Shown here one piece after another: positions 18,590 to 58,606 of a stretch of DNA of 64,000 nucleotides (the first letter of the stretch is position 1; the number at the start of each line of letters is the position of its first letter). A program made the translations under genes and the position numbers. The notes beneath the pieces are model-generated. The model did not search any database. It saw only the letters and a program-made list of their open reading frames with translations, and had not been told where the DNA came from. Origin of the DNA: a virus (lineage: Duplodnaviria; Heunggongvirae; Uroviricota; Caudoviricetes). Location of the stretch: the IMG/VR virus record IMGVR_UViG_3300025644_000002; one strand, 5' to 3'.

Positions 18590-19690
18590 GCACCTGGGTG
18601 GTATGACATCCAGTTAAAGATAACCCCAGCAATGGGACTAAAAGCAGTCGGGTCTGTGAAATTATACCTGGCATTGCGTTGTTCTCCTTCGGGAGTGCAA
18701 ACATTTATACACTGCGAACTTCTATTTATCTTGTAAAAAATAGTCCAACACTCCAGGCTAACTGCGAGGCGTGAAGGTCGAGATACGTATCCCCTGAGGG
18801 GTAGGCAGAAATGTCTGTATAGTAATCGCAAGATATCCTGTCTGTCAAGCGGGTTATCAATTATATAGTTTGTCGGGATCAAGATATTGAGGCCTTCATT
18901 GGCTTCTAAGTCAAGAAGAGACAACTACTATGATGAAGGATCGGAGGCTGTCATGGCTAATGACTTACGAGGGCGAGTGGCATTATGTGGCTGAAAACTA
19001 CGTAACCACAACCGGGAACGCGTCCTCCCAATCACAGAAAAACCATAATGTAGCTCAGTTGGTAGAGCAACGGAATATTAATCCGTAGATCACGAGTTCG
19101 ATTCTCGTCATTTATAATGAAAGCAATTAGATTCCTGGCTGCTTATAATAAAAGATCACTAATATCGGCCTGTATAACGTCGAGCTCTGCGCCTCGCAAG
19201 GGTTGCAGCAGTATTTATAAGGAAGCGGTTAAGCTTGGCGGCAGCTAAGATAGTCGTGAAATTGTAGAGTTAATGTAAGTGGAAAGACCTGGCTCCATAC
19301 CTGGAGCTGTGATTGGTGTATTACGACGACGTAAGTCTGCGTGGAAACGAGGGGAATTGAAATGATCCCTTTAAAGATATACCGTACTAACTGTATTCTC
19401 AGGAAAAGTACAAACTTCATAAAACTGGGCCAAAGACGTAATAAAAACGTTGGGTGTCTATCCGAAGGAGTTGCAAGGCTAGAGCCTTCAATTTGGAAAA
19501 GAATTTAAGATAGGGCTTCCTACTTAACGTAGGTGGTGCGGGGATTAATAAGTCTCGCAAAGGGAGTTGCATCCCTCGGAAGAAGAGTTTACCCCTCAGC
19601 CACTCTCATCTTCCATAAAAAGAATACCAGGAAAGCCACCTGAAAAATTGGCCTTACGCCCGTGCACTCTGTGCCATCTTACAAGCGTAT
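18590..19690 (+). ncRNA. Candidate structured non-coding RNA region (~1.1 kb, hairpin-rich, higher GC)
   Basis: No ORF of 60 aa or longer on the plus strand. Hairpins include CTCC-TTCG-GGAG (UUCG tetraloop), GCTCCA-tacc-TGGAGC and GGGA…TCCC. A promoter box lies upstream and a tRNA-like gene is embedded. Confidence 0.35.
19044..19116 (+). tRNA. tRNA-like gene with canonical D and T arms, anticodon loop ATATTAA (formal anticodon AUU) and an imperfect acceptor stem
   Basis: GTAGCTCAGTTGGTAGAGC D-arm, ACGGA/TCCGT anticodon stem, ACGAG-TTCGATT-CTCGT T-arm; acceptor pairs poorly. Confidence 0.35.
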
Positions 19691-26981: not shown

Positions 26982-27191
26982 ATGAGTAAAGTAGGAAACA
27001 ACAGCGGAAAAGATTATATTCTATGTTGTTGTATATGCTCTTCAACTAGAAAGGACATCCACATGGTGGGGCATCGTAATAAAGATAACCACTTAATAGG
27101 CTTCCTTTATGTATGTGATGAACACACTAAACAAGTAGAAGGAAAAAACTTTCAAGTAAAGTTCGTAGATGAAAAAGAGGAGACTAAATAA
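26982..27191 (+). CDS. small Cys-rich zinc-finger protein
   Basis: CCCICSS…CDEH. Confidence 0.4.
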   Translation: MSKVGNNSGKDYILCCCICSSTRKDIHMVGHRNKDNHLIGFLYVCDEHTKQVEGKNFQVKFVDEKEETK

Positions 27192-27888
27192 TATGGGAGA
27201 CGGAACCCCACTAGGTGATCGTATGAAAGATTATGAAGCTACCTATAAATACAAGCTTCACAAAAGAATGCCAGTAATAATAAGAGTAGACGGTAGAGCG
27301 TTTCACACTCTTACAAGAAAATTATATGGAAGAGGATGGTCTACCGGATTCTCTGCAAATATGATGGAAACTGCTAGGGCTTCTATGGAAGATATGCAGT
27401 CAACAAAGTTTTGCTATGGTCAATCTGATGAGATCAGTTTTTTATTAACGGATTATAAAACTCATAACACACAGTCGTGGTTCAATAATTCCATACAGAA
27501 AATAGTATCAATTACAGCAGCTATCGTAAGCACTAACTTTTATTCAATAACTGGCGAAAAAGTGCAGTTTGATGCTAGAGCTTTTAATTTGGCAAAAGAT
27601 GAAGTGACAAACTATTATATCTGGAGACAACAAGATGCTATACGCAACGCTGTCCAGATGGTAGGAAGAGAGCATTTCTCTCAGAAAGAACTTCACATGA
27701 GAAGTGTTGAGAATATAAAACATCTTCTATCCAAAAAGATAGGAATTAATTTTGATGACTTCTCTAGTTTAAGACGACAAGGGTACTGTATAGACAATAA
27801 CCACCCAGATATGAATATCCCAGTGTTTGCCTCAGCTAGGGGTAAAGATTACATTGAAAAACATGTATATTTAATAGAAAATAATTAA
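27169..27888 (+). CDS. Thg1-like protein (tRNA-His guanylyltransferase family 3'-5' nucleotide polymerase)
   Basis: VIIRVDGRAFHTL ~ Thg1 VVVRLDGRNFHRF; CYGQSDEISFLL ~ AYGQSDEYSFVF; YYIWRQQDAIRNA ~ YLSWRQADCHINN. Confidence 0.7.
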   Translation: MKKRRLNNMGDGTPLGDRMKDYEATYKYKLHKRMPVIIRVDGRAFHTLTRKLYGRGWSTGFSANMMETARASMEDMQSTKFCYGQSDEISFLLTDYKTHNTQSWFNNSIQKIVSITAAIVSTNFYSITGEKVQFDARAFNLAKDEVTNYYIWRQQDAIRNAVQMVGREHFSQKELHMRSVENIKHLLSKKIGINFDDFSSLRRQGYCIDNNHPDMNIPVFASARGKDYIEKHVYLIENN

Positions 27889-30810: not shown

Positions 30811-31338
30811 ATGAGTTATTTCATGATAGACATAGAGTCTGACGGGGAATGCCCTGGAATATTCTCTATGGTAGAGTTTGCAGCAATAAGGGTCACGGAA
30901 GCGAAGGACGAGTCCGTCCACGAGCGCCTAAGGCCTATTACTAACCTATGGAAACCTGAAGCTTTAGAAAAGATAGGGGTAACTAGGGAAGAAACTCTTG
31001 GATACGGAGATCCTGAAGAAGCTATAAAAACTTTAGCAGAGTTTGTAAAAGAAACTTCAAAAGGAAGGCCGATGTTTATATCTGATAACAATGGGCATGA
31101 TTGGCAGTTCATAAATTATTACTGTCATAAGTACTTAGGGATAAATCCCTTTGGGCACTCAAGTGCAAACCTAGGAAGTCTTTTTAAAGGGTTGGTTCAA
31201 ACTCCTTTTGAAAACTTCAAACACCTGAGAGATACTCCTCATACACATAGCTCTATCGATGACGCTATGGGTAATTTGGAAGCGTTTCTAAAATTAATAA
31301 AGACTTATAACCTTCCGGGATATTTAGATAAGGAGTAG
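30811..31338 (+). CDS. DEDDh-type 3'-5' exonuclease (DnaQ/RNase T-like)
   Basis: Exo I motif MIDIESDG and Exo III motif HSSIDDAMG. Confidence 0.6.
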   Translation: MSYFMIDIESDGECPGIFSMVEFAAIRVTEAKDESVHERLRPITNLWKPEALEKIGVTREETLGYGDPEEAIKTLAEFVKETSKGRPMFISDNNGHDWQFINYYCHKYLGINPFGHSSANLGSLFKGLVQTPFENFKHLRDTPHTHSSIDDAMGNLEAFLKLIKTYNLPGYLDKE

Positions 31339-31541: not shown

Positions 31542-32465
31542 ATGAACAAAGCGCTAGGCATTTTAATAGCTATAGTCGTTGTAGTGCTCTGGGGTACATT
31601 CTCAGCTGCATACACGCTAGACGCTAATGAACAAGCAGTCGTGCTCCGTTTGGGGAAGTACAATAGTACTACCGCTGTTGGAGGACTACAATTTAAGATT
31701 CCGTTCGGGATTGATGAAGCATACAAAGTGAGAACTGAGTATGAATATAAAGCCGAATTTGGATTTAGAACTGTATCTGCTGGTAAAAATACCAACTACA
31801 ACAAAAGCGGATTCGTCGAAGAATCAGAAATGCTGACAGGGGATTTAAATATTGTGTACCTACAATGGGTTGTACAATATAAGATTAATGATCCTTATCA
31901 GTATTTGTTTGCCACTAGAAACCCTGAAGAGCTCTTGCGAGACGGTTCGGAAAGTGTAATGCGTTTAATGGTAGGGGATCGCTCCTTCTATGAAGTATTA
32001 CAAAAAGATCGTGTAGCTATAGCCAATACGGCCAAGACTCACCTGCAGGATATGCTAACATTATATGAATGCGGCATTATCGTAGAGTTGGTTCAGTTGA
32101 AAACTGTTGATCCACCTCCGCTAGTTCAGGCTGCCTTTAAAGAAGTAAATTCTGCTGAGCAAACGCAGGAGACTACTATTAATGAGGCCAGGGAAGACTA
32201 CACCAAGCAGGTAACAGAAACTGAAGGTGAAGCGGCAAGACTGGTTGAGGAAGCAAATGGTTATGCTATCGAAAGAGTTAACGAAGCTAAAGGTAACACA
32301 GCTTGGTTTACTGCAGTATATAATGAGTATAAAGTAAATCCTAAGGTAACTAAGGACCGTTTATATTTTGAAACAATGCAGAAAATTCTACCGACAGCAG
32401 AAAACGTTTGGTTTATTGATGAAAACATTTCAGCACTACCACACTTTAATTTGGGAGGCAACTAG
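31542..32465 (+). CDS. hflK: HflK-like SPFH/band-7 protein
   Basis: N-terminal TM helix, QAVVLRLGKY…FKIPFGIDE…, long coiled-coil; typical HflK layout. Confidence 0.65.
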   Translation: MNKALGILIAIVVVVLWGTFSAAYTLDANEQAVVLRLGKYNSTTAVGGLQFKIPFGIDEAYKVRTEYEYKAEFGFRTVSAGKNTNYNKSGFVEESEMLTGDLNIVYLQWVVQYKINDPYQYLFATRNPEELLRDGSESVMRLMVGDRSFYEVLQKDRVAIANTAKTHLQDMLTLYECGIIVELVQLKTVDPPPLVQAAFKEVNSAEQTQETTINEAREDYTKQVTETEGEAARLVEEANGYAIERVNEAKGNTAWFTAVYNEYKVNPKVTKDRLYFETMQKILPTAENVWFIDENISALPHFNLGGN

Positions 32466-32467
32466 TT

Positions 32468-33427
32468 ATGGAATTGACAGTTAAAAAAGGGGCTTTCATA
32501 TTCCTCTTTATGTTCCTGCTTTTTGGATTCTTTAGCGGTTTATACGTTATCGATGAAAAAGAACAAGTGGTGATTACTCAGTTTGGTAAAATTCGCGGCG
32601 AAGCGATTACTGACGCAGGGGTTCACCTGAAGATTCCTTACATTCAGAATAAGCATGTTTATGACAAACGTATTCTGGAATGGGATGGGGATGCCGAAGA
32701 ATTACCTACAAAAGATAATAAATATGTCTTTATTGATGTATTTGCCAGATGGAGAATTAGTGATCCTCAGGAATATCATAAAGCTGTAGGTGGTCGTGAA
32801 AACCAGGCACAATCTCGAATTGATGATGTAATAGATGGTAGCTCACGTGACATAATTGCTGAGCATGTAATGTCTCAAATTGTACGGTCTAGTAATCGGG
32901 AGATGGTGTTACGTTCGCAGGAAACCTCAGATACAAATACTGAAGATCAGGGCACCGAGTCCAGCTTCATGCAACCAGGAATCCGAGACGAAATTGTGGC
33001 TAAAATCCTGGCAATGGCTCAATCAAAACTAGCCGAACGTAAATTAGGAATCGAAATTATAGACGTTCAGCTGAAACGGGTAAATTTTACCAATGTAGTC
33101 AAGAAAAAGATACAGGATAGAATGGTTTCAGAGCAGTCACGAATTGCTCAGAAATATCGCGCCCAGGGGCAGAAAGAGAGACAGGAATTAGCTGGAAGAC
33201 GAAATAACAAAATAAAAAATCTAATGTCTGAGGCTTATAATGAGTCTGAGATGATTAAAGGTACAGCTGATGCAACAGCTACCAAGATCTACGCAGAAGC
33301 TTATGGCGCAGATCCAGACTTTTATAATTTTGTGAAATCGTTGGAAACGTTGGAGAAAGCGGTAACACCGTCGACCAACATAATGATGACCAGCAGAAAT
33401 GGTGTCTTAAAAGTATTGTTTGAATAG
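32468..33427 (+). CDS. hflC: HflC-like SPFH/band-7 protein
   Basis: EQVVITQFGKI…HLKIPYIQ…, immediately downstream of the HflK homolog. Confidence 0.65.
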   Translation: MELTVKKGAFIFLFMFLLFGFFSGLYVIDEKEQVVITQFGKIRGEAITDAGVHLKIPYIQNKHVYDKRILEWDGDAEELPTKDNKYVFIDVFARWRISDPQEYHKAVGGRENQAQSRIDDVIDGSSRDIIAEHVMSQIVRSSNREMVLRSQETSDTNTEDQGTESSFMQPGIRDEIVAKILAMAQSKLAERKLGIEIIDVQLKRVNFTNVVKKKIQDRMVSEQSRIAQKYRAQGQKERQELAGRRNNKIKNLMSEAYNESEMIKGTADATATKIYAEAYGADPDFYNFVKSLETLEKAVTPSTNIMMTSRNGVLKVLFE

Positions 33428-34208: not shown

Positions 34209-34280
34209 TGGAGGCGTAGCTGAGTGGTTTAGCAGCGGCCCTTTAAGCCGCCGACGTAGGTTCGATTCCTACCGCCTTCA
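34209..34280 (+). tRNA. tRNA-Lys (TTT) with C33 instead of the universal U33 (anticodon loop CCTTTAA)
   Basis: Hand fold: acceptor GGAGGCG/CGCCTTC, D-stem GCTG/TAGC, anticodon stem GCGGC/GCCGC, T-arm GTAGG-TTCGATT-CCTAC. Confidence 0.6.
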
Positions 34281-34509
34281 CGCCCCCATTAAAAAGGAAC
34301 CAAATGAAAAAAAATAATTGTTTATAATCATGAGCATACAGTAGATGACGCTGTTGCCAAAAGATATGAAGAGTTAATGGATAATCTTCGAGAAGGTTAT
34401 GATAAACTATTAAATTCAGGAATGTTTTTTGAAATTTATCCAGAGCTTACAGGAAACTGGAAAGAAGATGAAGAGGCTTATTTAGCAAAATCAACCAATA
34501 AAAGATAAA

Positions 34510-36287: not shown

Positions 36288-37139
36288 ATGAATATAAAAA
36301 CCAACCTTACAATTCAAAAGAATCGTTTAAAAGTATATAGCCAATTAGATGTCTGGAATGGCATAGAAGCAACTTATTACTTAAATGATAAAGACGAATT
36401 TGAAATCGAACTTACTAACTTAGAAACTTCTTCCTGTAAATTGAGGATAAAACTTAATGGAAAATATATTTCCAATGGCGGGCTTGTGCTTGACCCTGGA
36501 CAGCATTATTTTCTGGAACGACATATCGAAGTAGATCGAAAGTTTGAATTTTCAACATATAACGTAGAAGATACTGAGGAAATAGACAAAGCTATAGCCG
36601 AGAACGGATTACTAGAGATAGAGTTTTATCGAGAGTCATTTCCTATCGAGCATAAATACTGTAGCCCATACACTAATCCTAATGTCTACCCAAGACCGTT
36701 TACATGGGAAGGTGATATACTAACCAACGATAATACTTGGTGGACCGACCTTGCTGGCGAATTCACGGGAATTAGCGGCATGTCAGCGCCAAGTATGTAT
36801 AGCGCTAGGGGCACAAGATGCTCAAATCCAGCAGAGCCTCAAATGGCTATGGGTATGATAGAAGATAGTGGCGAAGTACTTACAACCGCATGCTTTGCAA
36901 GCGCGCCTATGAAAGAGACGGGTAGAATTAAACAAGGTAGTCATTCAGAACAAAAGTTCGGAAGAAGCTATCAAAAATTTGAGCATACTCCCTCTCATGT
37001 AGTAACCTATAAATTATTACCTATGTCATTAAAACCTATTACGGTAAATGATTTAGAGAAACGTTATTGCCAAAAATGTGGACTTAGACGAAAAAAGTCT
37101 ACCTGGATATGTTGTCCAGCGTGTACAACTAGATATTAA
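36288..37139 (+). CDS. hypothetical protein with a C-terminal zinc ribbon (283 aa)
   Basis: CQKCG…CCPAC at the C-terminus; TATAAATA at 36148-36155 upstream. Confidence 0.5.
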   Translation: MNIKTNLTIQKNRLKVYSQLDVWNGIEATYYLNDKDEFEIELTNLETSSCKLRIKLNGKYISNGGLVLDPGQHYFLERHIEVDRKFEFSTYNVEDTEEIDKAIAENGLLEIEFYRESFPIEHKYCSPYTNPNVYPRPFTWEGDILTNDNTWWTDLAGEFTGISGMSAPSMYSARGTRCSNPAEPQMAMGMIEDSGEVLTTACFASAPMKETGRIKQGSHSEQKFGRSYQKFEHTPSHVVTYKLLPMSLKPITVNDLEKRYCQKCGLRRKKSTWICCPACTTRY

Positions 37140-37142
37140 TAT

Positions 37143-37170
37143 ATAAACGGGGTTTCGGCCCCGTTTTTCT
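37143..37170 (+). terminator. Rho-independent terminator (CGGGG…CCCCG + T5)
   Basis: acggggtttcggccccgtttttc. Confidence 0.5.
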
Positions 37171-37182
37171 TTATGGAGATTT

Positions 37183-38199
37183 ATGACTAGCAAAATAGAA
37201 GTAGATAAAAAACAAATTGATAAATTTAGGAAAAAAGAGATTACAAGTTCAGAATTATATAATAATAGTGAACCTGAAACTTTTTTATCCGAAGATAGCC
37301 AGAATAGCGCCCTACTCCCCGAAGATAAAAACCTAAATCTTGAAAACGTAACCTCTGGATATTTAACCAATGAACAAGGAACTTTTTTACCAGCTTCAGC
37401 TTTTGTAAAAATTTTACCAGCAGGGTATTATGAAGTATTAGAATCTAGAGGAGCCGCCGTAGAGTTCTTAAATATTGAGCTAGAAGCCTCGGACCTAATT
37501 TTATTTAGTAATTCAATAGCTGAAGAAATATTATTAGAATTAGGAAAATTTTGGAAACTTGGATCAGCTTATAAAGCTTGGGGAGAAAGCCATAAAAGAG
37601 GAATTCTAATTTATGGTGGAGACGGCTCAGGAAAAAATAGTACAATGAAAATAGTAATGTCAAATTGTATTCAAAAAGGATATTTAGTATTTGATAGCTC
37701 TTTTGTAGTATCAGAAGGTATTACTAGAATAAGAGATATTGAGGGGAATAGGCCCATACTTGTTATAATTGAAGACATTGACAGAATTATAATGGATCCA
37801 GTAGCTGAAGCAAAGATTCTGGATTTACTAGATGGAATAGGAGTAATAAATAATGTTGTATTTTTAGCTACAACTGCTTATCCAGAACGGCTTCCTACAT
37901 CTTTAAAAAATAGACCTTCGAGGTTTGACAGGGTTATGCACCAGGATTACCCAGATGAAATTACTCGTAAAAAATATTTACAATTAAAGAGTAGTTTAAA
38001 GGGTAAAGAATTAAATACTTGGGTAAAAGATACTAATAACTGGTCTTTCGCACATATTAAAGAACTCATAGTAAGCGTCATAATGTTAGATACAGATTAT
38101 AAAGTATCAATAGACAGAATTAATAAACTAAGGCAAGAGGTAGCTACGTCTGAAGTAGCAATTTCTTCTCATAATATAGGCTTTAAAACAAAAAGGTAA
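37183..38199 (+). CDS. AAA+ ATPase
   Basis: Walker A GGDGSGKNST, Walker B ILVIIEDID. Confidence 0.55.
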   Translation: MTSKIEVDKKQIDKFRKKEITSSELYNNSEPETFLSEDSQNSALLPEDKNLNLENVTSGYLTNEQGTFLPASAFVKILPAGYYEVLESRGAAVEFLNIELEASDLILFSNSIAEEILLELGKFWKLGSAYKAWGESHKRGILIYGGDGSGKNSTMKIVMSNCIQKGYLVFDSSFVVSEGITRIRDIEGNRPILVIIEDIDRIIMDPVAEAKILDLLDGIGVINNVVFLATTAYPERLPTSLKNRPSRFDRVMHQDYPDEITRKKYLQLKSSLKGKELNTWVKDTNNWSFAHIKELIVSVIMLDTDYKVSIDRINKLRQEVATSEVAISSHNIGFKTKR

Positions 38200-38202
38200 A
38201 TA

Positions 38203-39276
38203 ATGAATACAGTCCTAACAGTTTTAGAAACCCAAATAAAGGAAGGGTGGGTAAAGCGAAGAAAACATCCAGAGTTTCCACTTTGGATATATAATTATAC
38301 CCATGCCACACAGTATGCTCGAAATTGGAACGATACCACTACTAGATGTAGGGGTCTTATACTAGATGAATATGGAACTGTAGTAGCCAACCCTTTTAGA
38401 AAATTTTTCAACTATACAGAATTAGAAGGACTAGGTATCGAGCTCCCAGATGACCACTACAGCATTTTTAATAAACTAGACGGATGTCTATTTATAATGG
38501 TTATGTGGAGGGGGCATTTAATTAAATCTACAAGAGGCTCTTTTGATAATGAATATATTACAGAGGCCAATGTAGTCTTAGAAGAAAAATACCCTGACCT
38601 TACTATAAGGGAGGACTTCACATACTGCTATGAGTTCTTAACACCTACTCTTAAGAAAGGGGGGATGACCTGTATCACCTACCCAGAGAGCGACCTAAGG
38701 CTATTGGCAGTACGCGATACGTTTACTGGCAGAGAGATAGGGTTGCACGCTGTTACTACTTGTATACCAAGAACAGAGCTATATGAACATGATTGCGATG
38801 TAAGTGAGTTATATAATGTACCAAATCAAGAAAACAAAGAAGGATTTGTGTTAGCATATGATAACGGGTTCAGAGTTAAAGTAAAATTTGACTGGTATGT
38901 AAGACATCACCGTATATTGCAGCTTTGCAATGATAAAACGGTATGGAAATACTTATCAGATCCAGAATTAGATATACAAGAGTTAATTGATATTGTACCA
39001 GATGAATACTATAAATGGCTTCATACCTCTATAGATAACTTTAGAGAGAATTATGTGATATTAGCAAACACTGCTTGTAAACAATACATGCACCTTATAA
39101 CTAGTTTCCCAGAATCAATTGATATGAAAAAACGAACTTCCAAAGCAGTAGCAGAAAAAGTCATAAATATTGGAAATAAACAAATAATTTCTTTAGTATT
39201 TACAATGTTACAAGGGAAAAACATAAAGCCCTTAATTTGGAAATATTTAAAACCAAAACAAACGGAGAAAAAATGA
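38203..39276 (+). CDS. rnlA: RNA ligase 1 (T4 RnlA-like)
   Basis: Motif I FNKLDGCL; EGFVLAYDNGFRVKVKFDWYVRHH ~ T4 Rnl1 [24 protein letters not shown]. Confidence 0.65.
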   Translation: MNTVLTVLETQIKEGWVKRRKHPEFPLWIYNYTHATQYARNWNDTTTRCRGLILDEYGTVVANPFRKFFNYTELEGLGIELPDDHYSIFNKLDGCLFIMVMWRGHLIKSTRGSFDNEYITEANVVLEEKYPDLTIREDFTYCYEFLTPTLKKGGMTCITYPESDLRLLAVRDTFTGREIGLHAVTTCIPRTELYEHDCDVSELYNVPNQENKEGFVLAYDNGFRVKVKFDWYVRHHRILQLCNDKTVWKYLSDPELDIQELIDIVPDEYYKWLHTSIDNFRENYVILANTACKQYMHLITSFPESIDMKKRTSKAVAEKVINIGNKQIISLVFTMLQGKNIKPLIWKYLKPKQTEKK

Positions 39277-39437
39277 AAAATCCCGGATTCATACTATTTA
39301 TAGTATTACTTGTCCTAAAGTTAGTTGGAGTCATTACATGGAGTTGGTGGTGGATAACTGCCCCGCTGTGGCTTGGCTTCGTCTTATTATTTTTAGCTGT
39401 AGGCGGTATAGCTGCAATTGCAAGTTGGCTCGATTAG
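39237..39437 (+). CDS. small membrane protein
   Basis: ORF track; two TM helices. Confidence 0.4.
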   Translation: MEIFKTKTNGEKMKNPGFILFIVLLVLKLVGVITWSWWWITAPLWLGFVLLFLAVGGIAAIASWLD

Positions 39438-39939
39438 ATATTTACTAATACTACTCACAAATATATGTTTATGCGTTGGAGCCTTACCTGAGGAATGGAA
39501 AGCTTTAACAAGCCATCAACAAGAATCAATACGGGCATCCTATGAATATGGGGTGCCCTTTGATTTAGGGTGGACATTAGCTGCTATTGAGTGGCAAGAA
39601 TCTGCAGGAGGTAAATACCTTGTAAATTTGCAAGACCCTTCCGCAGGAGCTCACCATATCAATATCAACACATATATGAGTAGACATAGAGATGAGATAG
39701 AGGACACACCCTTTAATAGGAATGTAGTGGCCCAATGGCTCATAGATAGTCACATACTTAGTTGTAGAGAAGCAATAACTGAACTAACCTATTGGAAGAA
39801 TGAGAGACATAATGGTAGCTGGTCCAAAACTGTAAGATCCTACAGGGCGGGCAATCGCTGGGAGTCTCCAGCAGGTTGGCAATATTATAAAAGTATAACA
39901 GCCAGAATAAACTTTTTAAAACAAGAATGGAAATTATAA
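39418..39939 (+). CDS. hypothetical protein (173 aa)
   Basis: ORF track. Confidence 0.45.
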   Translation: MQVGSIRYLLILLTNICLCVGALPEEWKALTSHQQESIRASYEYGVPFDLGWTLAAIEWQESAGGKYLVNLQDPSAGAHHININTYMSRHRDEIEDTPFNRNVVAQWLIDSHILSCREAITELTYWKNERHNGSWSKTVRSYRAGNRWESPAGWQYYKSITARINFLKQEWKL

Positions 39940-39940
39940 A

Positions 39941-41005
39941 ATGAGACATTTAGCAACAATCCAACTCATAGCTAATTTAGAGCCTATCTCTGGAGCAGAT
40001 GTAATTGAAAAAGCAACTGTAAAAGGCTGGCATCTAGTAGTTAAGAAGGGGGAATTTCAAATAGGTGATAAATGCGTCTACTTTGAAGTGGACTCTTTGT
40101 TGCCAGAAATAGAGCCGTTTGAATTCTTAAAGAAAAACGGTGTCAAAACAATAGATGACGGCACAAGAGGTTATCGCTTACGAACTATAAAATTGCGTAA
40201 GCAAATTAGTCAAGGGCTAGCCATGCCATTAGATACTTTCGAAGAGCTCGCCGATGGCCCCGAAGTGGGAACAGACGTAAGTGAACTTTTGAAAGTAGTA
40301 AAATATGAAGCACCCATTCCAGCATGCTTAAGTGGCCAGATTAAAGGCCACAGACCTTCCTGGATTCCTAAGACGGATGAAGAACGTGTACAGAATCTTG
40401 TAGATGAAATAAAAGAATGGGCAGGAACAGAGTGCTACATAACAGAGAAATTAGATGGATCGTCATCTACCTTTTATTATGCACCTAACTACCGAAAAGC
40501 AACACCTTTCGGAGTATGCAGTCGGAAGCTTGACCTAATAGAGAATGACAAAAATTCTTTCTGGAAAGTCGCTAGAGATATTGACGCAGAAGAGAAAATG
40601 TCTAAACTTGGTATAAATGTAATTTTCCAAGGAGAATTACTGGGGCCAGGGATTCAGAAAAATAAATACAAATTGTCTGCTACAGAAGTAAAAATGTTTA
40701 ACGCTTTTACTATACAAGATGGTGGCTTTGGAAGTATTGAGAGCTTTCTAAATCTTATATTTGGGGACTACACAACTGAGGGGGAAGTTCGCGTACGAGG
40801 GTTAGATAGAATATTTAATACTGTACCTGTCCTTAATCCAAAGATGGTGTTAAACCATACAGTAGACGAATTAGTAGAGCTTTCTAAAGGCCCAAGCCTT
40901 CTAAATCCTGATATCCCAAGAGAGGGAATTGTGATTAGAGCGAGAGATGGTAGCTTTAGTTTTAAAGTAATTAACCCTGACTTCTTAATTAAGTTTGGAG
41001 AATAA
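39941..41005 (+). CDS. rnlB: RNA ligase 2-like nucleotidyltransferase (Rnl2 family) with an extra N-terminal domain
   Basis: Motif I TEKLDGSS; FQGELLGPGIQKNKYKL ~ T4 Rnl2 FGEFAGPGIQKNVDY; motifs EGIVIR and SFKVINPDF. Confidence 0.6.
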   Translation: MRHLATIQLIANLEPISGADVIEKATVKGWHLVVKKGEFQIGDKCVYFEVDSLLPEIEPFEFLKKNGVKTIDDGTRGYRLRTIKLRKQISQGLAMPLDTFEELADGPEVGTDVSELLKVVKYEAPIPACLSGQIKGHRPSWIPKTDEERVQNLVDEIKEWAGTECYITEKLDGSSSTFYYAPNYRKATPFGVCSRKLDLIENDKNSFWKVARDIDAEEKMSKLGINVIFQGELLGPGIQKNKYKLSATEVKMFNAFTIQDGGFGSIESFLNLIFGDYTTEGEVRVRGLDRIFNTVPVLNPKMVLNHTVDELVELSKGPSLLNPDIPREGIVIRARDGSFSFKVINPDFLIKFGE

Positions 41006-41389
41006 ATGAAAAGTAACCAGCTTTTAAAAACACTGAAAGATGGCGATATAGTATTAATGGTGCTTCCTGGGTTATATGAGCCTTCAGTGTTAGAGATATG
41101 CCAACTCAAAAATACTAAATTCATTCCAAAGGGTGAGGGGCGCTCTTTCGACTGGTTAGACTTTGACTCTGACACTTTGTATGTAAATACTCGCGTACAT
41201 AGTTCACAGTTAGGTGAATCAGCTGGAAACTGTTTGTCAATAACAGAAGTGATAGCTCCCGAGCATCTTGAACAATTTGCACGAAATAAAGATATGTGGA
41301 AAGCATCTTTATACCAATACTCTGACGTTGAGTACAAACACGCCCAGAGTACGGCGGAGAGTTCTATAAAGTTATGGGATAGAGACTAA
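41006..41389 (+). CDS. hypothetical protein (127 aa)
   Basis: ORF track. Confidence 0.45.
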   Translation: MKSNQLLKTLKDGDIVLMVLPGLYEPSVLEICQLKNTKFIPKGEGRSFDWLDFDSDTLYVNTRVHSSQLGESAGNCLSITEVIAPEHLEQFARNKDMWKASLYQYSDVEYKHAQSTAESSIKLWDRD

Positions 41390-41413
41390 GCCATAAATAA
41401 AAGGAAATACAAA

Positions 41414-42328
41414 ATGAGACAAGTAATAATACTACGGGGGTTACCCGCAAGCGGTAAGACTTCGTATGCCGTAGATATGATGGATAAAATGCCAGATACA
41501 TACAAACGTGTAAATAGGGATAGTCTACGAAGCATGGTTGATGGTGGAGTATACTCTAAAGGAAATGAGAAAATAATTAAAGCAATTAGAGACTCTTTAA
41601 TCTTTAGATACTTAGATGCCGGAAGATCAGTATTCGTAGATGATACAAACTTACACAGCTCAAATGAGGAGCATATTAGAAAAATAGTGGCGGACTATAA
41701 CATTTTACGGGAAGTTAAGCACGACGTATTAGTTGTGGTTAGAGAATTCCCTACAGATGTATTTGATGCCATTGATCGAGACGCATTACGTACAGGATCG
41801 GCCCATGTAGGCTCTAAAGTTATTTATGATATGTACAGTAGGTTTCTAAAGAAAGATGAGCCTCACGACTATCCTGAGCCTCCAGGCACGGTTGAGTTGG
41901 TAGACGGCTTACCTAAGGCAATCATTTGTGACTTAGACGGCACGATGGCATTCCTTAAAGGCCGTAACCCTTATGACGCCTCTACTTGTGAGAACGATAC
42001 TTACAATGCGATTTTGGGGGAAATTCTTCACGTTATGGACAAACAGGGATACCAAATAATCTTTTTATCTGGAAGATCGGAAAAATACCTTTCAGAAACT
42101 AGACAGTTTTTGAAAGCAAACCTTCCGTTTCCTCATTGGAAGATGTTCATGAGACCATTGTTTGAGCATAATATAAGAGATTCAATTCTTAAACGCAAAC
42201 TTTATGATGAACACGTTAAAGATAAATACAACGTATTTTGCGTGTTTGATGATAGAGACCAAGTAGTTGGTCTATGGCGTAAAGACTTAGGTCTACAATG
42301 TTTCCAAGTAAACTACGGAAACTTCTAA
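41414..42328 (+). CDS. pnk: polynucleotide kinase / 3'-phosphatase (T4 Pnk-like)
   Basis: N-terminal P-loop GLPASGKTS; C-terminal HAD motif ICDLDGT. Confidence 0.65.
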   Translation: MRQVIILRGLPASGKTSYAVDMMDKMPDTYKRVNRDSLRSMVDGGVYSKGNEKIIKAIRDSLIFRYLDAGRSVFVDDTNLHSSNEEHIRKIVADYNILREVKHDVLVVVREFPTDVFDAIDRDALRTGSAHVGSKVIYDMYSRFLKKDEPHDYPEPPGTVELVDGLPKAIICDLDGTMAFLKGRNPYDASTCENDTYNAILGEILHVMDKQGYQIIFLSGRSEKYLSETRQFLKANLPFPHWKMFMRPLFEHNIRDSILKRKLYDEHVKDKYNVFCVFDDRDQVVGLWRKDLGLQCFQVNYGNF

Positions 42329-42382
42329 ATTAATAAACTGACGAAATAATAACATACAAGTTAGAAAAGGAAAAAAAACAAA

Positions 42383-43246
42383 ATGCAAAAATTGCACTTC
42401 TTAATAATTGATCCACAAAACTCTTTTATGGATCGAAACAATGATTTAGTCTTACTTCAAAAAGCCGGCATAAATTTGGCGGATATAGGATTACGACTTC
42501 CAGAACCAGAATTACCGGTACCGGGGGCTTATGAGGACTCTGAGAGGTTAGCTATGGTGCTTAACCGCTTAAGAGGTAAAATTACTGGGATCCACGTGAC
42601 GCTAGATACCCACCAATTGTTGGATATTTCGCATCCATTATTTTGGATGAATAGTGCTGGAGAACATCCGGGCCCGTTTACACTTATAAGTCTAGACGAC
42701 TTAAACGGATCAGTTTGGACACCGACTAGCCCAGATCGAATTCCAAGAGCCAGAGCTTACCTGCAAGCTCTCCAAGACAACGACAGATACCTTCTGTGTA
42801 TATGGCCACCACATTGTAAAGTGGGCACATGGGGCCACAATGTAGTAGATGTTGTAAACGCAGAACTTGAAGCCTGGGAAGAAAGCAGAAAACGCAGAAT
42901 AAACTATGTTACAAAAGGACACAACCCTTGGACAGAACATTACTCTGGCGTTATTGCTGATGTACCTGACGATGAAGATCCTACTACGCAGTTAAACGTC
43001 ACTCTTTTAAAACTTTTAAAAGACGCAGACATAATTGCCCTTTCAGGTCAGGCTCTATCACACTGTGTAGCTAATACAGTTAAAGATATTGCAGACAACT
43101 TCGGAGAAGAGAATATCAAAAAACTAGTACTGCTTGAAGACACTTCTTCAAATGTTACTGGGTTTGAGAAATTGGGTACCGACTTTGTAACGGAAATGGT
43201 TTCACGCGGTATGCAGATCTGTAAAGCTGAAGACTTTTTGAAATAA
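42383..43246 (+). CDS. isochorismatase-family hydrolase, putative nicotinamidase (PncA-like)
   Basis: LIIDPQNSF resembles the isochorismatase/nicotinamidase N-terminal motif; fits the NAD salvage set. Confidence 0.45.
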   Translation: MQKLHFLIIDPQNSFMDRNNDLVLLQKAGINLADIGLRLPEPELPVPGAYEDSERLAMVLNRLRGKITGIHVTLDTHQLLDISHPLFWMNSAGEHPGPFTLISLDDLNGSVWTPTSPDRIPRARAYLQALQDNDRYLLCIWPPHCKVGTWGHNVVDVVNAELEAWEESRKRRINYVTKGHNPWTEHYSGVIADVPDDEDPTTQLNVTLLKLLKDADIIALSGQALSHCVANTVKDIADNFGEENIKKLVLLEDTSSNVTGFEKLGTDFVTEMVSRGMQICKAEDFLK

Positions 43247-43276
43247 ACAAACACACAAAGATAAAGGAGATTATCA

Positions 43277-44041
43277 ATGGTAGATACCATGCAAAGTGTG
43301 GACTTATTAGGAGCTGGAAATTTTAAGTTTTCAGCAATAGGCTTAGATGAACTAGAAGCCTCCGAATATACCTTAGTAGGTATAGTCGTTGACATTACCG
43401 GATCAGTGGGCGGTTATGAAACTATGTTACAAAAGATGATTGAAGAAATAGTGGGGGCATGTAAAATGTCTGCACGTTCTGAAAATCTACTTGTTAGGGT
43501 AACACTGTTTAATAGTCAGACTGATATTTTGGAAATCCATGGATTTAAGCCTGTAAACGATATAGATTTAAGTGAGTATTCAGGGAAATTAGTACCTGAC
43601 GCAGCTACTAACCTGTTTGATGCCACTTATGATATGATCGGATCAATTGAACAGTATGGTAAATCCCTAGCGGACCAGGAATACAGTGTAAATGCTGCCG
43701 TGTATGTTATTACAGACGGAGATGATAATTCTTCGACTATGACAGCCACTAATGTAAAGGACAGAATACACTCCATTAAACGTGCCGAAGAATCAATTGA
43801 ATCTTTAATTTCCGTATTAATCGGGATAGGCACAGACGGCAACCATGGTTGGGGCTCTAGGGTTTCACAACTATTAAAAGAGTTTAAAGATGATGCAGAC
43901 CTCACGCAATATATTGATGCGGGCAATGCAAATGCTAAAACTCTTGCAAAATTAGGGAATTTCATTAGCCAAAGCATTAGTTCACAGAGCCATTCACTTG
44001 GCACTGGCGGACCTTCTGCTCAAGCTAGTATGAAATTCTAA
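43277..44041 (+). CDS. von Willebrand factor A domain protein (TerY-like)
   Basis: MIDAS DITGSVGG…TDGDDN. Confidence 0.55.
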   Translation: MVDTMQSVDLLGAGNFKFSAIGLDELEASEYTLVGIVVDITGSVGGYETMLQKMIEEIVGACKMSARSENLLVRVTLFNSQTDILEIHGFKPVNDIDLSEYSGKLVPDAATNLFDATYDMIGSIEQYGKSLADQEYSVNAAVYVITDGDDNSSTMTATNVKDRIHSIKRAEESIESLISVLIGIGTDGNHGWGSRVSQLLKEFKDDADLTQYIDAGNANAKTLAKLGNFISQSISSQSHSLGTGGPSAQASMKF

Positions 44042-44072
44042 CTTACAAAACGTACGTAAGAAACGGCGTAAC

Positions 44073-44140
44073 GGGGCGGTATCTCAGCAGGGTAGAGTTA
44101 GGGGATACCCTAGACATTGGTTCGAATCCAATCCGCGCTG
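44073..44140 (+). tRNA. tRNA-like gene (68 nt) whose anticodon arm is replaced by a TAGGG-GATA-CCCTA tetraloop hairpin
   Basis: Acceptor GGGGCGG/CCGCGCT, D-arm, canonical T-arm ATTGG-TTCGAAT-CCAAT, but no 7-nt anticodon loop can be folded. Confidence 0.35.
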
Positions 44141-44169
44141 TTACGTTCGTTCTTATTAAAAGGAAAACT

Positions 44170-44949
44170 ATGAACATAGATTCACATTTTATTCAAGGGG
44201 CCACTCATCGGGTTTGTGAAGATTATACACTTCATGGGGAAACAGATGAGATAGCTTATATTATTGTATGTGATGGGTGTTCAAGCGCTCCTCACACAGA
44301 TTTTGGAGCTAGATTAATAGCCCATAGTGTAGAACAAGCCATTAGAGAATTTGGAGAGCTGACTCGTCAAAAATTAGAGTGGCAACTTCAATTATGTAAA
44401 GGTTATACTGATGTCCAAGGCCTGGACCGCCGTATGCTGCTGTCAACTGTGTTGGTAGCTATCTATAATAAAGAAAAACAAAGCTTTTATATTCTTATGG
44501 CCGGAGATGGACATTGTTTCTTAGATTCAAAAGAAGGACCGCTTCATATAGATATTCAATCACCTCATAATACTCCATACTATCCTGCGTATAACATTAC
44601 TCGAAAAGATCAGGAAGAATACAAAGAGTGTTTAAAGGACAAAGGACAAACAGTTGTTCACATGAATGATGGTGACGAGGATCCTACCAATGTAGCATTA
44701 GAAACTGGAATGCCCTTTATATTTCAGCCTGATTACCCGATAGCTTCGGTAATTTTAACTACTGATGGTATAGACCAAGTAATAGATAGGGATACTGGAG
44801 AGAGAGTAGTGATTGATGATATCATCACTCATTTCCCAAGTGCCGCAGGAGCATTCGCTGTAAGAAAACTAAGGTTTCTTAAGAAAACCTGGAATAGAAA
44901 TTATATTACTAACGCAGACGATATTGGAATTGCTGGAATAATATTATGA
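44170..44949 (+). CDS. PP2C-family Ser/Thr phosphatase
   Basis: VCDGCSSAPHTDFGA ~ PP2C xDGxGGxxxG motif; sits between the vWA and kinase genes. Confidence 0.5.
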   Translation: MNIDSHFIQGATHRVCEDYTLHGETDEIAYIIVCDGCSSAPHTDFGARLIAHSVEQAIREFGELTRQKLEWQLQLCKGYTDVQGLDRRMLLSTVLVAIYNKEKQSFYILMAGDGHCFLDSKEGPLHIDIQSPHNTPYYPAYNITRKDQEEYKECLKDKGQTVVHMNDGDEDPTNVALETGMPFIFQPDYPIASVILTTDGIDQVIDRDTGERVVIDDIITHFPSAAGAFAVRKLRFLKKTWNRNYITNADDIGIAGIIL

Positions 44950-46637
44950 AGGTTTTAGTACAAGGAAAGGGGCAAGTATCATTATTAGACTCTAATTTTG
45001 TAGCTCAAGGTGGAGAGGGTAAAGTATATGTAAAAGGTGGAAGAGCTTATAAAATATTTCATGACCCAAAAACTATGATACCTGAAGAAAAAATTAGGGA
45101 ACTGTCAGTTCTTACTAAGAATACCATTATAAAACCTGAGAATTTAATTTACACTACAAAAAACACGTTAATAGGATTTATGATGCAGACTGTACCTCAG
45201 TCTATTCCATTACCAAGAATGTTTACATCTGCGTATCTTAATAGAAACAATTTAAATAACGATACCGTTACTAAATTAGTTACAAATATTAAGGATACAA
45301 TTAGTCATGTGCACGATCATGACATAATAATGGTCGATGGTAACGAATTAAATTATTTAATAGAAACTAGAAAGCATACTACTGCTTATTGTATAGATGT
45401 AAACTCATGGCAAACTCCTAATTATCCAGCTACAGTAATTATGCCCTCTATTAGAGATTGGCATGCTACAGAATTCACAGAAATTTCAGATTGGTTTTCC
45501 TTCGCTGTAATAGCTTGTCAACTGTTTATAGGAATTCACCCATATAAGGGAAAGAATTCTCACTTTAAACGAGCTACATTAGAAGAACGTATGAGAGCAA
45601 ACGTATCAATCTTTAACCCTGAAACGCGTGTTCCGGGCGCAGTAAGGGACTTTACAAATATACCTAAGAGTTATTATGATTGGTTTAAAGAAGTATTTGA
45701 AAATGGTTATAGAAGTACTCCTCCAGACATGAAAGGGCAGTACATTATACTTCCAATAACTCCTATAATAACAACACACACCGGAAGCAAATATTTTACA
45801 ATACAACAATTAAACGATTATCCTGGCGACATAATTGACTGCACTTATTTTGGTAGACAGTATATAATATATACCAAAAAAGATGTTGTCATATATAACA
45901 ATAATAGTTATATTAAAGATACCACCTCCAAGGTTTTTTCACACAGTATGTCTCAAAAGACGTTTCTTGTGAAAACTAAGGATGAATCTTTAGTATACAG
46001 ATCATTGGAAGATAGCCAATCTCCTTATCATAGTACAAATATTAAGGTTGAAAAAACTATGATATACGAAAATAGGCTATATGGCGTAAACAAGGATAGA
46101 TTTTTTGAAATAGATGTATTAGATACCGGCTCAAAGCCTACGTTTTATATTTTAAATACTTGGGAAATATTCAATAATTCTACAGAAATGTTAGATGGAG
46201 TATTATGTTCTAGTATTTTAGGTAAAACTCATTTATATTTACCATACGCACCCAACAAATGTGCAATTGTAGCAATTCCTGAACTAGATAAGTACAAGAT
46301 AATTGATGCAAAATGCCGAGACAGGGTTTGTATGATAATAGGACAATCAGGCAGCAAGTATGATAAATTTATTATCGTATTCGATGAAAATTTCAAAAAA
46401 TATGATATAAGAATCTTGAAGGACGCAGATAATATGTTGAATTTTATCTGCCTACCTAACGGATTAACTATAAGTATACATGAAGATGGCGCTTTAGAAA
46501 TGTTTCGCGCTAAGGCTTCAAGTGATGTGCAGGTCTACAAAGACTCTGCCATCAAGTCGTCGATGACACTGGCCCACGAGGGCAATATTGTTCGGTTCTA
46601 TGAAATGAATCGGATGTATCAACTAAAAATGAAATAA
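44946..46637 (+). CDS. eukaryotic-like Ser/Thr protein kinase
   Basis: Gly-rich loop AQGGEGKVYV, AYKIF (VAIK-like), DWFSFAVIACQLFIGIHPYKG (DxWSxG…P). Confidence 0.55.
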   Translation: MKVLVQGKGQVSLLDSNFVAQGGEGKVYVKGGRAYKIFHDPKTMIPEEKIRELSVLTKNTIIKPENLIYTTKNTLIGFMMQTVPQSIPLPRMFTSAYLNRNNLNNDTVTKLVTNIKDTISHVHDHDIIMVDGNELNYLIETRKHTTAYCIDVNSWQTPNYPATVIMPSIRDWHATEFTEISDWFSFAVIACQLFIGIHPYKGKNSHFKRATLEERMRANVSIFNPETRVPGAVRDFTNIPKSYYDWFKEVFENGYRSTPPDMKGQYIILPITPIITTHTGSKYFTIQQLNDYPGDIIDCTYFGRQYIIYTKKDVVIYNNNSYIKDTTSKVFSHSMSQKTFLVKTKDESLVYRSLEDSQSPYHSTNIKVEKTMIYENRLYGVNKDRFFEIDVLDTGSKPTFYILNTWEIFNNSTEMLDGVLCSSILGKTHLYLPYAPNKCAIVAIPELDKYKIIDAKCRDRVCMIIGQSGSKYDKFIIVFDENFKKYDIRILKDADNMLNFICLPNGLTISIHEDGALEMFRAKASSDVQVYKDSAIKSSMTLAHEGNIVRFYEMNRMYQLKMK

Positions 46638-46649
46638 TCAAGACAACAA

Positions 46650-47036
46650 ATGAGCAATTTATACTCAAAATTAAGTGACGATAAAAAATATGATGCAGTA
46701 GACTTCGTACTGTACTGGAACGAGCCAAACGTAATGGTTGAGCTATTAGTACCAGGTTATCAGGCTTCTAACATTAAAATTAGAATAGCTAAGGCTGGAA
46801 CTGCGTTCGGCAATTCGCCTTCAACTCATGACCGCCTGTTAGTGACAGCTGGACCGGATAAAGAGATTGGTAAAGGAACTTTCTGTAAAGGTTTCTATAA
46901 CGAATTTCCATTACAGAACGGTGAACATTTTAATTATGGAAAATTAACTAGTTCGCTAGTTCGTGGTGTTTTAACCATCGCCATACCTGTAAAAGGGAAA
47001 TTCACTCCACAGGAGTTCACAGTTAGCGAAGGCTAG
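46650..47036 (+). CDS. Hsp20 / alpha-crystallin-family small heat shock protein
   Basis: …GKLTSSLVRGVLTIAIPVK C-terminal alpha-crystallin-like beta strands. Confidence 0.45.
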   Translation: MSNLYSKLSDDKKYDAVDFVLYWNEPNVMVELLVPGYQASNIKIRIAKAGTAFGNSPSTHDRLLVTAGPDKEIGKGTFCKGFYNEFPLQNGEHFNYGKLTSSLVRGVLTIAIPVKGKFTPQEFTVSEG

Positions 47037-47100
47037 CGCTTCTATGTAGATCGTCAATAAAAGACATTATAAAGCTTAACCGCTTTATATCTTTGAAATT

Positions 47101-47140
47101 AGGCCCGGCGATCACTCGCTGGGTCTTTTTTTTAACAATT
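47101..47140 (+). terminator. Rho-independent terminator (CCCGGCGA…TCGCTGGG + T9)
   Basis: ggcccggcgatcactcgctgggtcttttttttaac. Confidence 0.5.
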
Positions 47141-47161
47141 ATTAACAATAGGGAATTATAA

Positions 47162-47839
47162 ATGAGATTATTAATGAGAGCGTTAGTAGGAAGTAGATTG
47201 CATGGGTTAGATACTCCTATAAGTGATTTCGATTATAAAACTGTATTTATTGAGACTACTTCAAATATTTTAGCTTTACCAGAGCACCAGCCCAGCGATC
47301 CAAAGGATCCAGCAGATACCTGGGAATTAGCTAGATTTCTACATTTCGCATTAAGAAGTAATCCTACAATTCTGGAAACTTTTAAAGCGACATTTACTAC
47401 AGAAAACGAGAACTGGTGTGAAGAGTTAAGAAGTCTATTTCCAGACGTTTGGAGTTCTAAATTAGTTTTCCACTCGTACAGGGGTTATGCTCAATCGCAA
47501 CGCAAAAAGCTTTTAGAAAATGATGAAGCCCTTAGTAATGGAAATGTAGAATTAGATACCATTAGAAAAAGAAAATCATCAGCGGCCTGGTTAAGAATGT
47601 TATATAATGGATACGAACTATTACAAACTGGCGATTTTACAGCCAGAATAGCTGATACAGAAGTAGGCATTCTTTGCAGAAAATATAAGGAAGGCGAATC
47701 TACTATACCAGAGGTTATAAAAACTTGTAGCTCTTGGGAAGAAAAACTAGAAGACGCGTTTAATAAGTCTACAAAAAAAGAAGCTAACTCAAAATTAGTA
47801 AATGATTTTCTATTAAAAATAAGAAAAGTTTCTTGGTAA
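47162..47839 (+). CDS. minimal nucleotidyltransferase (Pol-beta superfamily)
   Basis: GSRLHGLDTPISDFDY matches GS…SDxD. Confidence 0.45.
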   Translation: MRLLMRALVGSRLHGLDTPISDFDYKTVFIETTSNILALPEHQPSDPKDPADTWELARFLHFALRSNPTILETFKATFTTENENWCEELRSLFPDVWSSKLVFHSYRGYAQSQRKKLLENDEALSNGNVELDTIRKRKSSAAWLRMLYNGYELLQTGDFTARIADTEVGILCRKYKEGESTIPEVIKTCSSWEEKLEDAFNKSTKKEANSKLVNDFLLKIRKVSW

Positions 47840-49031: not shown

Positions 49032-49103
49032 GCCGTGGTCGTCTAATGGTAAGACGCTCTTAGTCCGCTAAGAGAAATGGAGGTTCAACTCCTTCCCTAG
49101 GCT
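49032..49103 (+). tRNA. tRNA-like gene with a non-canonical anticodon arm (CTCTT-AGTCCGCT-AAGAG, 8-nt loop, or a 6-bp stem with 6-nt loop)
   Basis: D-arm TCGTCTAATGGTAAGACG, T-arm GGAGG-TTCAACT-CCTTC, acceptor GCCGTGG/CCTAGGC with 2 mismatches. Confidence 0.35.
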
Positions 49104-49112
49104 CTAATTTAT

Positions 49113-51997: not shown

Positions 51998-52135
51998 TGA
52001 GTGAGGTTATACTACCTTTAGAAGCTACCATAGATGAGGATTTACAACTTATTTTGGAAACCAAATTTGGAAATGGCAGACTAACCCTTACAGATATACT
52101 TCTATTACAAATTTGTAGAAAACTCGATAAACTTA

Positions 52136-53574: not shown

Positions 53575-53576
53575 AT

Positions 53577-53606
53577 ACGTGGGGGCCAAGCGTCCCCACT
53601 TTTAAA
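53577..53606 (+). terminator. Rho-independent terminator (GTGGGGG…TCCCCAC + TTTT)
   Basis: cgtgggggccaagcgtccccactttt. Confidence 0.5.
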
Positions 53607-53610
53607 TAGA

Positions 53611-53694: not shown

Positions 53695-53695
53695 C

Positions 53696-58603: not shown

Positions 58604-58606
58604 AAT

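Follow-up and report, generated by a model that had tools for sequence, protein, structure and literature searches.

The tRNA-Lys gene and its anticodon loop

The window, i.e. the whole stretch of 64,000 nucleotides of phage DNA that was analysed (IMG/VR virus record IMGVR_UViG_3300025644_000002), carries on its plus strand a 71-nt tRNA-Lys(UUU) gene at 34210-34280, with a discriminator A73 (the A at 34280) and without an encoded CCA. The earlier note on this DNA, made from the letters alone, had placed the gene at 34209-34280; the end holds, whereas the start lies one base too low. ARAGORN calls tRNA-Lys(ttt) at 34210-34281 and folds it into a 7-bp acceptor stem with one G-U pair, a 4-bp D stem, a 5-bp anticodon stem, a 4-nt variable loop and a perfectly paired T arm (GTAGG-TTCGATT-CCTAC). 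The Rfam model RF00005 matches 34210-34280 over its full length (model positions 1-71) with 65.0 bits for a gathering score of 29, which ranks fourth among the 21 tRNA matches in the window. The unconstrained minimum-energy fold of the 71-mer computed with ViennaRNA is also a cloverleaf, with the same 7-nt anticodon loop and an energy of -29.2 kcal/mol. In the ARAGORN fold and the Rfam alignment, no stem and no conserved tertiary position is disrupted. The anticodon UUU and the discriminator A73 are identity elements for the LysRS of E. coli.

The anticodon arm (34235-34251, +) is made of the stem GCGGC (34235-34239), the loop CCTTTAA (34240-34246) and the stem GCCGC (34247-34251), as read from the sequence, from the bracket string of ARAGORN and from the fold of the isolated 17-mer (-7.5 kcal/mol). 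The anticodon TTT (U34-U35-U36; 34242-34244, +) reads AAA and AAG. In tRNA numbering, the loop is C32-C33-U34-U35-U36-A37-A38, and the C at 34241 (+) occupies position 33, where a U is nearly universal; it immediately precedes, on the 5' side, the bond cut by the anticodon nuclease PrrC (PMC2610378). Three methods agree on C33, namely ARAGORN, ViennaRNA and Rfam, in whose alignment the C sits opposite the consensus U33. The earlier note had described a tRNA-Lys(UUU) with C33 whose anticodon arm folds in one way only, as GCGGC-CCTTTAA-GCCGC, and had named ARAGORN as a check; the ARAGORN call of tRNA-Lys(ttt) with the loop CCTTTAA, the Rfam score and the ViennaRNA fold all bear this description out, and none of the three folds contains an alternative stem that would put a U at position 33. 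We rejected another register of the loop, which would give the anticodon UUA, as shifting by one base puts C-C and G-G mismatches in the stem.

C33 is unique to Lys among the 22 tRNAs called by ARAGORN in the window: 20 of the 21 others have a U before the anticodon, the exception being a doubtful Ala(GGC) gene with A33. An error of assembly was also rejected as the source of C33. An identical tRNA-Lys gene is carried by an independent assembly of another sample (L479, ERZ4200964), with 99.95% identity along 10,960 bp. This makes C33 a genuine feature, fixed in the population that was sampled. A scan for promoters and terminators around the gene gave nothing better than shuffled sequences. Taken as a whole, the gene very probably encodes a genuine C33 tRNA-Lys that is functional in translation.

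The phage, its tRNA set and its RNA-repair genes

The DNA comes from a huge phage, whose only relatives in GenBank are 'uncultured phage' genomes of 485-595 kb. These relatives are distant, with about 34% protein identity (34% amino-acid identity for LR756511 and LR745208). The exact contig is found at ENA as scaffold_55 (139 kb) of ERZ23491642, and in the assembly collection, 63-84 blocks contain the same proteins, on contigs that reach 0.2-1 Mb. The tRNA region had no match among GenBank phages by megablast, and a scan of metagenomes with the D-arm motif, which is common in unrelated tRNAs, did not retrieve the tRNA-Lys of the window. Just upstream of the tRNAs lies a pair of SPFH genes, HflK and HflC (31542-33427, +), and the HflC is about 50% identical to that of Marinimicrobia and the FCB group. 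Using HflC as a query, we found no viral relatives: the search returned only an identical protein and cellular HflC of about 50% identity, and hence no diverged sister phage in which the conservation of C33 could be followed. The identical HflC is filed at NCBI under a 'Candidatus Scalindua' MAG, its next-best homologues being Marinimicrobia HflC (50% identity). This entry is probably a phage contig that was mis-binned as bacterial. The setting of the phage is marine.

Within about 93 kb (the window and its flanks), we counted 29 tRNA or tRNA-like genes, which cover all 20 amino acids, and a tmRNA. No tRNA-Lys other than the C33 gene is present in this region, while Lys codons represent 7.1% of the codons in the ORFs of the window, with 662 AAA and 222 AAG (about 3:1). 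The tmRNA (17994-18365 of contig L480) is located about 7.4 kb past the 3' end of the window and encodes the tag peptide GRPAVKLAA; five tRNAs (Leu-UAA, Gln-UUG, Arg-UCU, Ser-GCU and Arg-ACG) lie between the two, and a tRNA-Trp is found about 4.6 kb upstream of the window (4549-4621 of contig L481).

Several other members of this set are unusual. A tRNA of amber-suppressor type with the anticodon CUA (62186-62262, +; 'Pyl' for ARAGORN, 58.9 bits with Rfam) is at most 70% identical to the other tRNAs of the phage. Recoding of a stop codon in the window was considered and rejected: TAG ends 13 of the 85 plus-strand ORFs of at least 80 aa, and reading it as sense gains little. Long class-II variable arms are normally confined to Leu, Ser and Tyr in bacteria; here, long stem-forming variable arms are present in a tRNA-Thr(UGU) of 85 nt (53611-53695, +) and in a tRNA-His(GUG) of 88 nt (53697-53784, +), and a viral tRNA-Lys(UUU) from another locus (L025), 90 nt in length, also has a long arm. 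A tRNA-like gene at 49032-49104 (+; Rfam 38.3 bits), to which ARAGORN assigns no anticodon, combines a 6-nt anticodon loop (GUCCGC) with an acceptor stem in which two pairs are mismatched. The tRNA at 19045-19116 (+) was missed by ARAGORN and detected by Rfam only (58.7 bits); its loop AUAUUAA corresponds to the anticodon AUU (Asn), in which A34 is unusual, and it has a C1-A72 mismatch. An initiator-like tRNA-Met (58393-58470, +) has C1 opposite A72 and an encoded CCA. It is followed by the tRNA-like 'Ala(GGC)' gene with A33 (58529-58604, +), which scores below the Rfam gathering score and whose acceptor stem and CCA are nearly those of the tRNA-Met.

A block of genes for RNA repair is found 4-8 kb downstream of the tRNA-Lys gene, comprising an AAA ATPase, two RNA ligases, a polynucleotide kinase/phosphatase (Pnkp), a PP2C phosphatase, a kinase-like protein of 563 aa and an RlaP nucleotidyltransferase. 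The first ligase (38203-39276, +) is a probable member of the T4 RnlA (Rnl1) family, with 45.2 bits for Pfam RNA_lig_T4_1 (cut-off 28.3) and 71.9 bits for NCBIfam TIGR02308, which is below the equivalog cut-off of 242. The second (39941-41005, +) is of the DRB0094 family, with a PHA02142 OB fold and an RNA_ligase domain (Pfam) and 198 bits for TIGR02306 (cut-off 151). The Pnkp, a polynucleotide 5'-kinase/3'-phosphatase similar to T4 PseT (41414-42328, +), contains the Pfam domains AAA_33 and HAD_PNKP, and tblastn aligns it over its full length with annotated pseT genes of T4-like phages at 28-31% identity. The Pnk/Rnl pair announced by the earlier note is thus present, and these T4-type repair genes are ordinary members of their families. 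The whole set for RNA repair and tRNA maintenance extends over 36288-47839 (+), 27169-27888, 30811-31338 and 59667-60218, and also includes a Thg1-like 3'-5' polymerase, an RNase T-like exonuclease and a 2'-O-methyltransferase of the SpoU family, which weakly matches the position-32 methylase TrmJ. The Thg1-like enzyme and the SpoU methylase lie in other parts of the window than the repair block. The window also holds a block for NAD metabolism (51214-57634, +) composed of NADAR, NAPRTase, a HAD-family protein, a nucleoside 2-deoxyribosyltransferase-like protein, NAD synthase, a NUDIX protein and an NMNAT-like cytidylyltransferase; it resembles the pathways by which phages reconstitute NAD+ against NAD-depleting defences.

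C33 in other viruses, in T5-like phages and in cells

We searched IMG/VR for the pattern CCTTTAA followed by a T loop, a method whose counts are lower bounds. At least 43 contigs carry a bona fide tRNA-Lys(UUU) with C32-C33 and the loop CCUUUAA, representing 38 distinct sequences and 26 clusters at 80% identity, and the acceptor, D and T arms are very different among these matches. Six of these loci also hold a canonical U33 tRNA-Lys(UUU). The same pattern was then searched in prokaryotes, with one genome per species. Among the 120 matches listed, nearly all were tRNA-Ser genes with the motif in the variable arm, and 5 were Lys-C33 genes. All five are located in arrays of 2 to 17 tRNAs within at most 8 kb (four of the five arrays hold 6 to 17), which often carry further C33 tRNAs; such arrays are usual when phage DNA has been binned into MAGs. 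Elsewhere in the scanned genome loci, C33 was found in 1 of 136 tRNAs. C33 tRNA-Lys is virus-associated and recurrent in unrelated phages. The co-occurrence of viral C33-Lys genes with Pnkp, Rnl and Thg1 was also counted in short viral loci (1, 0 and 2 matches, respectively, vs. 0), where numbers are too small to give the comparison power.

A viral scan that left positions 32 and 33 unconstrained gave another picture of how specific C33 is for Lys. Among the matches listed, none of the 76 called tRNA-Lys(UUU) has C33, which is present in 10 of the 573 other tRNAs of the same loci (1.7%), distributed over Val, Asn, Arg, Ser, Ala and Glu. Other 'universal' positions deviate in these loci at 5% (T54), 4% (A58), 1.4% (C56) and 0.9% (T55). 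The rate of C33 is higher, at 4.6%, in the other tRNAs of phages with a C33 tRNA-Lys. Of 22 large viral arrays, 10 have no C33 tRNA besides that for Lys, while a few phages have many. Five IMG/VR loci (L052, L054, L118, L123 and L161) have C33 in many isoacceptors, mostly as C32-C33, with up to 8 of 26 tRNAs in L118 and 4 in L052, which points to a cause that is specific to a lineage or host and differs from the 'Lys only' pattern. When U33 is replaced in the viral tRNAs of the IMG/VR C33-Lys set, it is by C in 85 cases vs. 6 for A and 3 for G. As C is preferred over A and G, non-U33 tRNAs would be filtered for function rather than decaying.

The CCUUUAA loop is also that of the tRNA-Lys of coliphage BF23, which is one of the sequences retrieved from IMG/VR. 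Megablast found this gene in 88 GenBank/RefSeq records (some of them duplicates) of T5-like phages of Salmonella, Escherichia and Yersinia, 78 of which are at least 99% identical; the variant of slur09 retains C33. Roughly one third of the sequenced T5-like phages carry this BF23-type allele. The tRNA-Lys(UUU) of the host E. coli has the loop CUUUUAA, with U33, in 5426 of 5426 complete genomes. In BF23, Lys is the only C33 tRNA of about 20. The GenBank note on the BF23 gene tRNAK (AJ604530.1) gives the codon AAA and states that changing the anticodon to CUA makes an effective amber suppressor; this annotation indicates that the E. coli ribosome accepts the C33 backbone. In T5 itself, the tRNA-Lys found at the corresponding genomic position has U33. 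At this single locus, T5-like phages have at least four tRNA-Lys(UUU) alleles with differing anticodon arms, i.e. the T5, BF23 (C33), BUCT632 and beppo (C38) types, of which BUCT632 and beppo are both U33. Between T5 and BF23, 11 tRNAs are identical, 3 are nearly so and 6 (Pro, Lys, Ala, Leu and both Gln) are replaced at 62-74% identity. A search for Pnkp homologues matched 2162 phage records: a listing spread over these records contains no T5-like phage and 'Salmonella' does not figure among the leading organism names, so that BF23-type phages appear to lack Pnkp. The tRNA-Lys of the window is 68% identical to the BF23 type, and its nearest GenBank relatives are U33 tRNA-Lys genes of actinophages. 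Because the nearest relatives of each are U33 tRNAs, the C33 alleles of BF23 and of the window phage look independent.

Nuclease evasion and alternative explanations

According to the literature, tRNA-Lys(UUU) is a target of PrrC, RloC and AriB. PrrC cuts 5' of the wobble base, directly 3' of the canonical U33 (PMC2610378), in agreement with the U33-U34 bond given in the earlier note, and RloC cuts at the PrrC site and one position further on. The modifications mnm5s2U34 and t6A37 'significantly improve cleavage' by PrrC, modified tRNA-Lys being the better substrate (review PMC13191261). In vitro, E. coli TsaBCDE put no t6A on a U33C tRNA, and the study describes C33 as an anti-determinant towards the t6A enzymes of bacteria and yeast (PMC8887486). 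Other nucleases behave differently. Gamma-toxin cuts C33 and U33 stem-loops equally well. AriB, which the earlier note had counted among the nucleases of interest, acts elsewhere: its cleavage site is at 40/41 and not at 33/34, so that C33 has no bearing on it, and changes at positions 39 and 41 confer escape. P2 OLD was rejected as a relevant nuclease, as it cuts after nucleotides 27-29 of other tRNAs. In yeast, mutations of U33 lower translational and decoding efficiency, and C33 therefore likely carries a cost. Our literature search found no paper mentioning C33 in a phage tRNA-Lys and no PrrC or RloC data on a C33 substrate. In a survey of tRNA evasion in phages (van den Berg et al. 2023, eLife, PMC10264068), the entry for PrrC/RloC and tRNA-Lys is 'No mutation', and protection is ascribed to rnl1 and rnl2.

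From the whole analysis, we give a probability of about 0.4 to C33 being an adaptation against anticodon-loop nucleases of the PrrC/RloC type. The phage tRNA-Lys would be charged by the host LysRS, presumably through U34-U35-U36 and A73, and would read AAA, the main Lys codon of the phage. C33 is a fixed allele, and many unrelated phages have acquired or retained the same change. It would alter the nucleotide whose 2'-OH attacks the scissile phosphate at the 33-34 bond, and would probably prevent t6A37, a modification favoured by these nucleases, which may offer a second, indirect route to resistance. The tRNA would then be a poor substrate, and Lys codons could still be translated after the destruction of the host tRNA-Lys, while Pnkp and the RNA ligases would act as a second line by repairing cut tRNA. 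We infer the aminoacylation, the loss of t6A and the nuclease resistance of C33 tRNA-Lys.

Several observations argue for such an adaptation. C33 tRNA-Lys is enriched in viruses and recurs in unrelated phages, and C33 is restricted to Lys in two unrelated complete tRNA sets, those of the window phage and of BF23. The substitution sits exactly at the PrrC junction, and 4-8 kb away the phage encodes the classic response to PrrC, namely Pnkp along with two RNA ligases. In T5-like phages, the anticodon arm of tRNA-Lys is hypervariable, one of its alleles being a proven AriB escape variant, and the BF23-type C33 differs from the U33 of the host tRNA-Lys in the sole case with a known host. Against nuclease evasion stand the indifference of Gamma-toxin to C33, the different site of AriB, and the lack of specificity for Lys among the matches listed (0/76 Lys vs. 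10/573 others, at a rate like that of other conserved positions). The higher frequency of C33 in the other tRNAs of C33-Lys phages points to a lineage effect in some phages rather than to a cause directed at Lys. Moreover, the loss of t6A37 should weaken the decoding of AAA and AAG, and the phage already encodes repair enzymes.

Nearly as likely as the adaptation is that C33 is a tolerated and nearly neutral variant: the tRNA would work, the backup by host tRNAs would weaken the constraint, and C would be the least harmful replacement in the U-turn. A C33 rate of about 1.7% over many isoacceptors, similar to the deviations at other 'universal' positions, is what such tolerance would give, as are the missing enrichment for Lys in the unconstrained sample (0/76 among the matches listed) and phages with many C33 tRNAs (8 in L118, 4 in L052); eukaryotic initiator tRNAs, moreover, function with C33 (PMC8887486). 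However, near-neutrality fits poorly with a gene that is otherwise flawless and is the phage's only tRNA-Lys for 7% of its codons, with the strong enrichment in viruses over cells and with the restriction of C33 to Lys in BF23 and in the window phage. The allele is also common and stable in T5-like phages, as seen in the 78 nearly identical records out of 88 and in slur09, and given the loss of translational efficiency caused by U33 mutations in yeast, its persistence needs either tolerance or a benefit. That benefit might lie in decoding or modification apart from defence, which we consider improbable: the lack of t6A37, or recognition by the SpoU methyltransferase of the phage, would shift the reading of AAA vs. 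AAG or frameshifting at A-rich sites. The block of E. coli t6A synthesis by C33 in vitro (PMC8887486), the weak TrmJ match of the SpoU methylase and the 3:1 ratio of AAA to AAG in the window ORFs are consistent with this tuning, but nothing ties the methylase to tRNA-Lys, and the same loop is found in phages of very different genomes and codon usage.

The six viral loci with both a C33 and a U33 tRNA-Lys(UUU), in which the C33 copy is not needed for decoding, raise the question of a role outside translation, either as a decoy that blocks a nuclease directed at tRNA-Lys or as a decaying gene. The AriB paper mentions competition by viral tRNAs as a possibility, and the window holds other odd tRNA-like genes. 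Nevertheless, this is quite improbable for a gene that is the only tRNA-Lys of a complete 20-amino-acid set, whose stems and conserved tertiary positions are intact and whose BF23 homologue is annotated as the backbone of an effective suppressor. C-to-U editing of tRNAs exists in trypanosomes, organelles and one archaeon, and editing of C33 after transcription would make the mature tRNA canonical. We know of no C33 editing in bacteria, profile searches of the window revealed no deaminase near the tRNA-Lys gene, and this explanation can hardly be expected to hold.

The C33 tRNA-Lys can be compared with known systems. By function, the closest are the AriB-escape tRNA-Lys of T5 and the hypothesis of anticodon-loop mutations; by sequence feature, it is the BF23-type tRNA-Lys. 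The latter shares with the gene of the window the loop CCUUUAA, C32-C33 and the status of sole C33 tRNA in a near-complete phage set, but it differs by its stem (GCGGA/UCCGU), its encoded CCA and its carrier, a siphovirus of enterobacteria in which no Pnkp was detected. The tRNA-Lys(UUU) of T5, resistant to AriB of the PARIS system, also differs from the host tRNA in its anticodon arm and restores translation when the host tRNA-Lys is cleaved. Its resistance, which is experimentally proven, maps to U39A and A41C around the 40/41 site and it keeps U33, whereas C33 in the window affects another site and is known from sequence. The idea of a substitution at or near the nuclease site in a phage tRNA is that of van den Berg et al. 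2023 (PMC10264068), in whose survey tRNA-Lys has 'No mutation' at the PrrC junction, while the C33 alleles described here mutate exactly that junction. As in T4, where Pnk (PseT) and Rnl1 repair the tRNA after cleavage, the window has a full-length PseT homologue and a probable RnlA-family ligase near the tRNA array; C33, in contrast, would avoid cleavage. A natural and functional C33 tRNA is the cytoplasmic initiator tRNA-Met of eukaryotes, whose C33 is an anti-determinant towards the t6A37 enzymes of bacteria and of yeast (PMC8887486). That tRNA has the anticodon CAU and belongs to multicellular eukaryotes, whose KEOPS is adapted to C33, whereas the gene of the window is an elongator tRNA-Lys of a bacterial virus. 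The gene is thus a phage tRNA variant at a site targeted by defence, and not a new kind of element.

In its broadest form, the evasion reading would be a case of convergent counter-defence, in which phages from T5-like coliphages to marine huge phages independently exchanged the uridine of the U-turn for a nucleotide that keeps tRNA-Lys usable on the ribosome and makes it invisible to PrrC/RloC-type nucleases, partly by switching off t6A37. We regard this generalization as doubtful. U33 is among the most conserved nucleotides in biology, and a functional elongator tRNA without it deserves attention, all the more as C33 is a recurrent, virus-associated allele. The BF23 gene has been in GenBank since 2004, and we found no discussion of its C33 in the literature. 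BF23 and E. coli are tractable, and since the host has U33 and the phage apparently lacks RNA-repair genes, they provide a direct test system for protection against PrrC and RloC. A neutral C33 would show to what extent the U-turn position may deviate in vivo. If it confers resistance, it would represent a second escape route for tRNA-Lys, at another site than the route of T5 against AriB, and would link an anti-determinant of tRNA modification to immune evasion.
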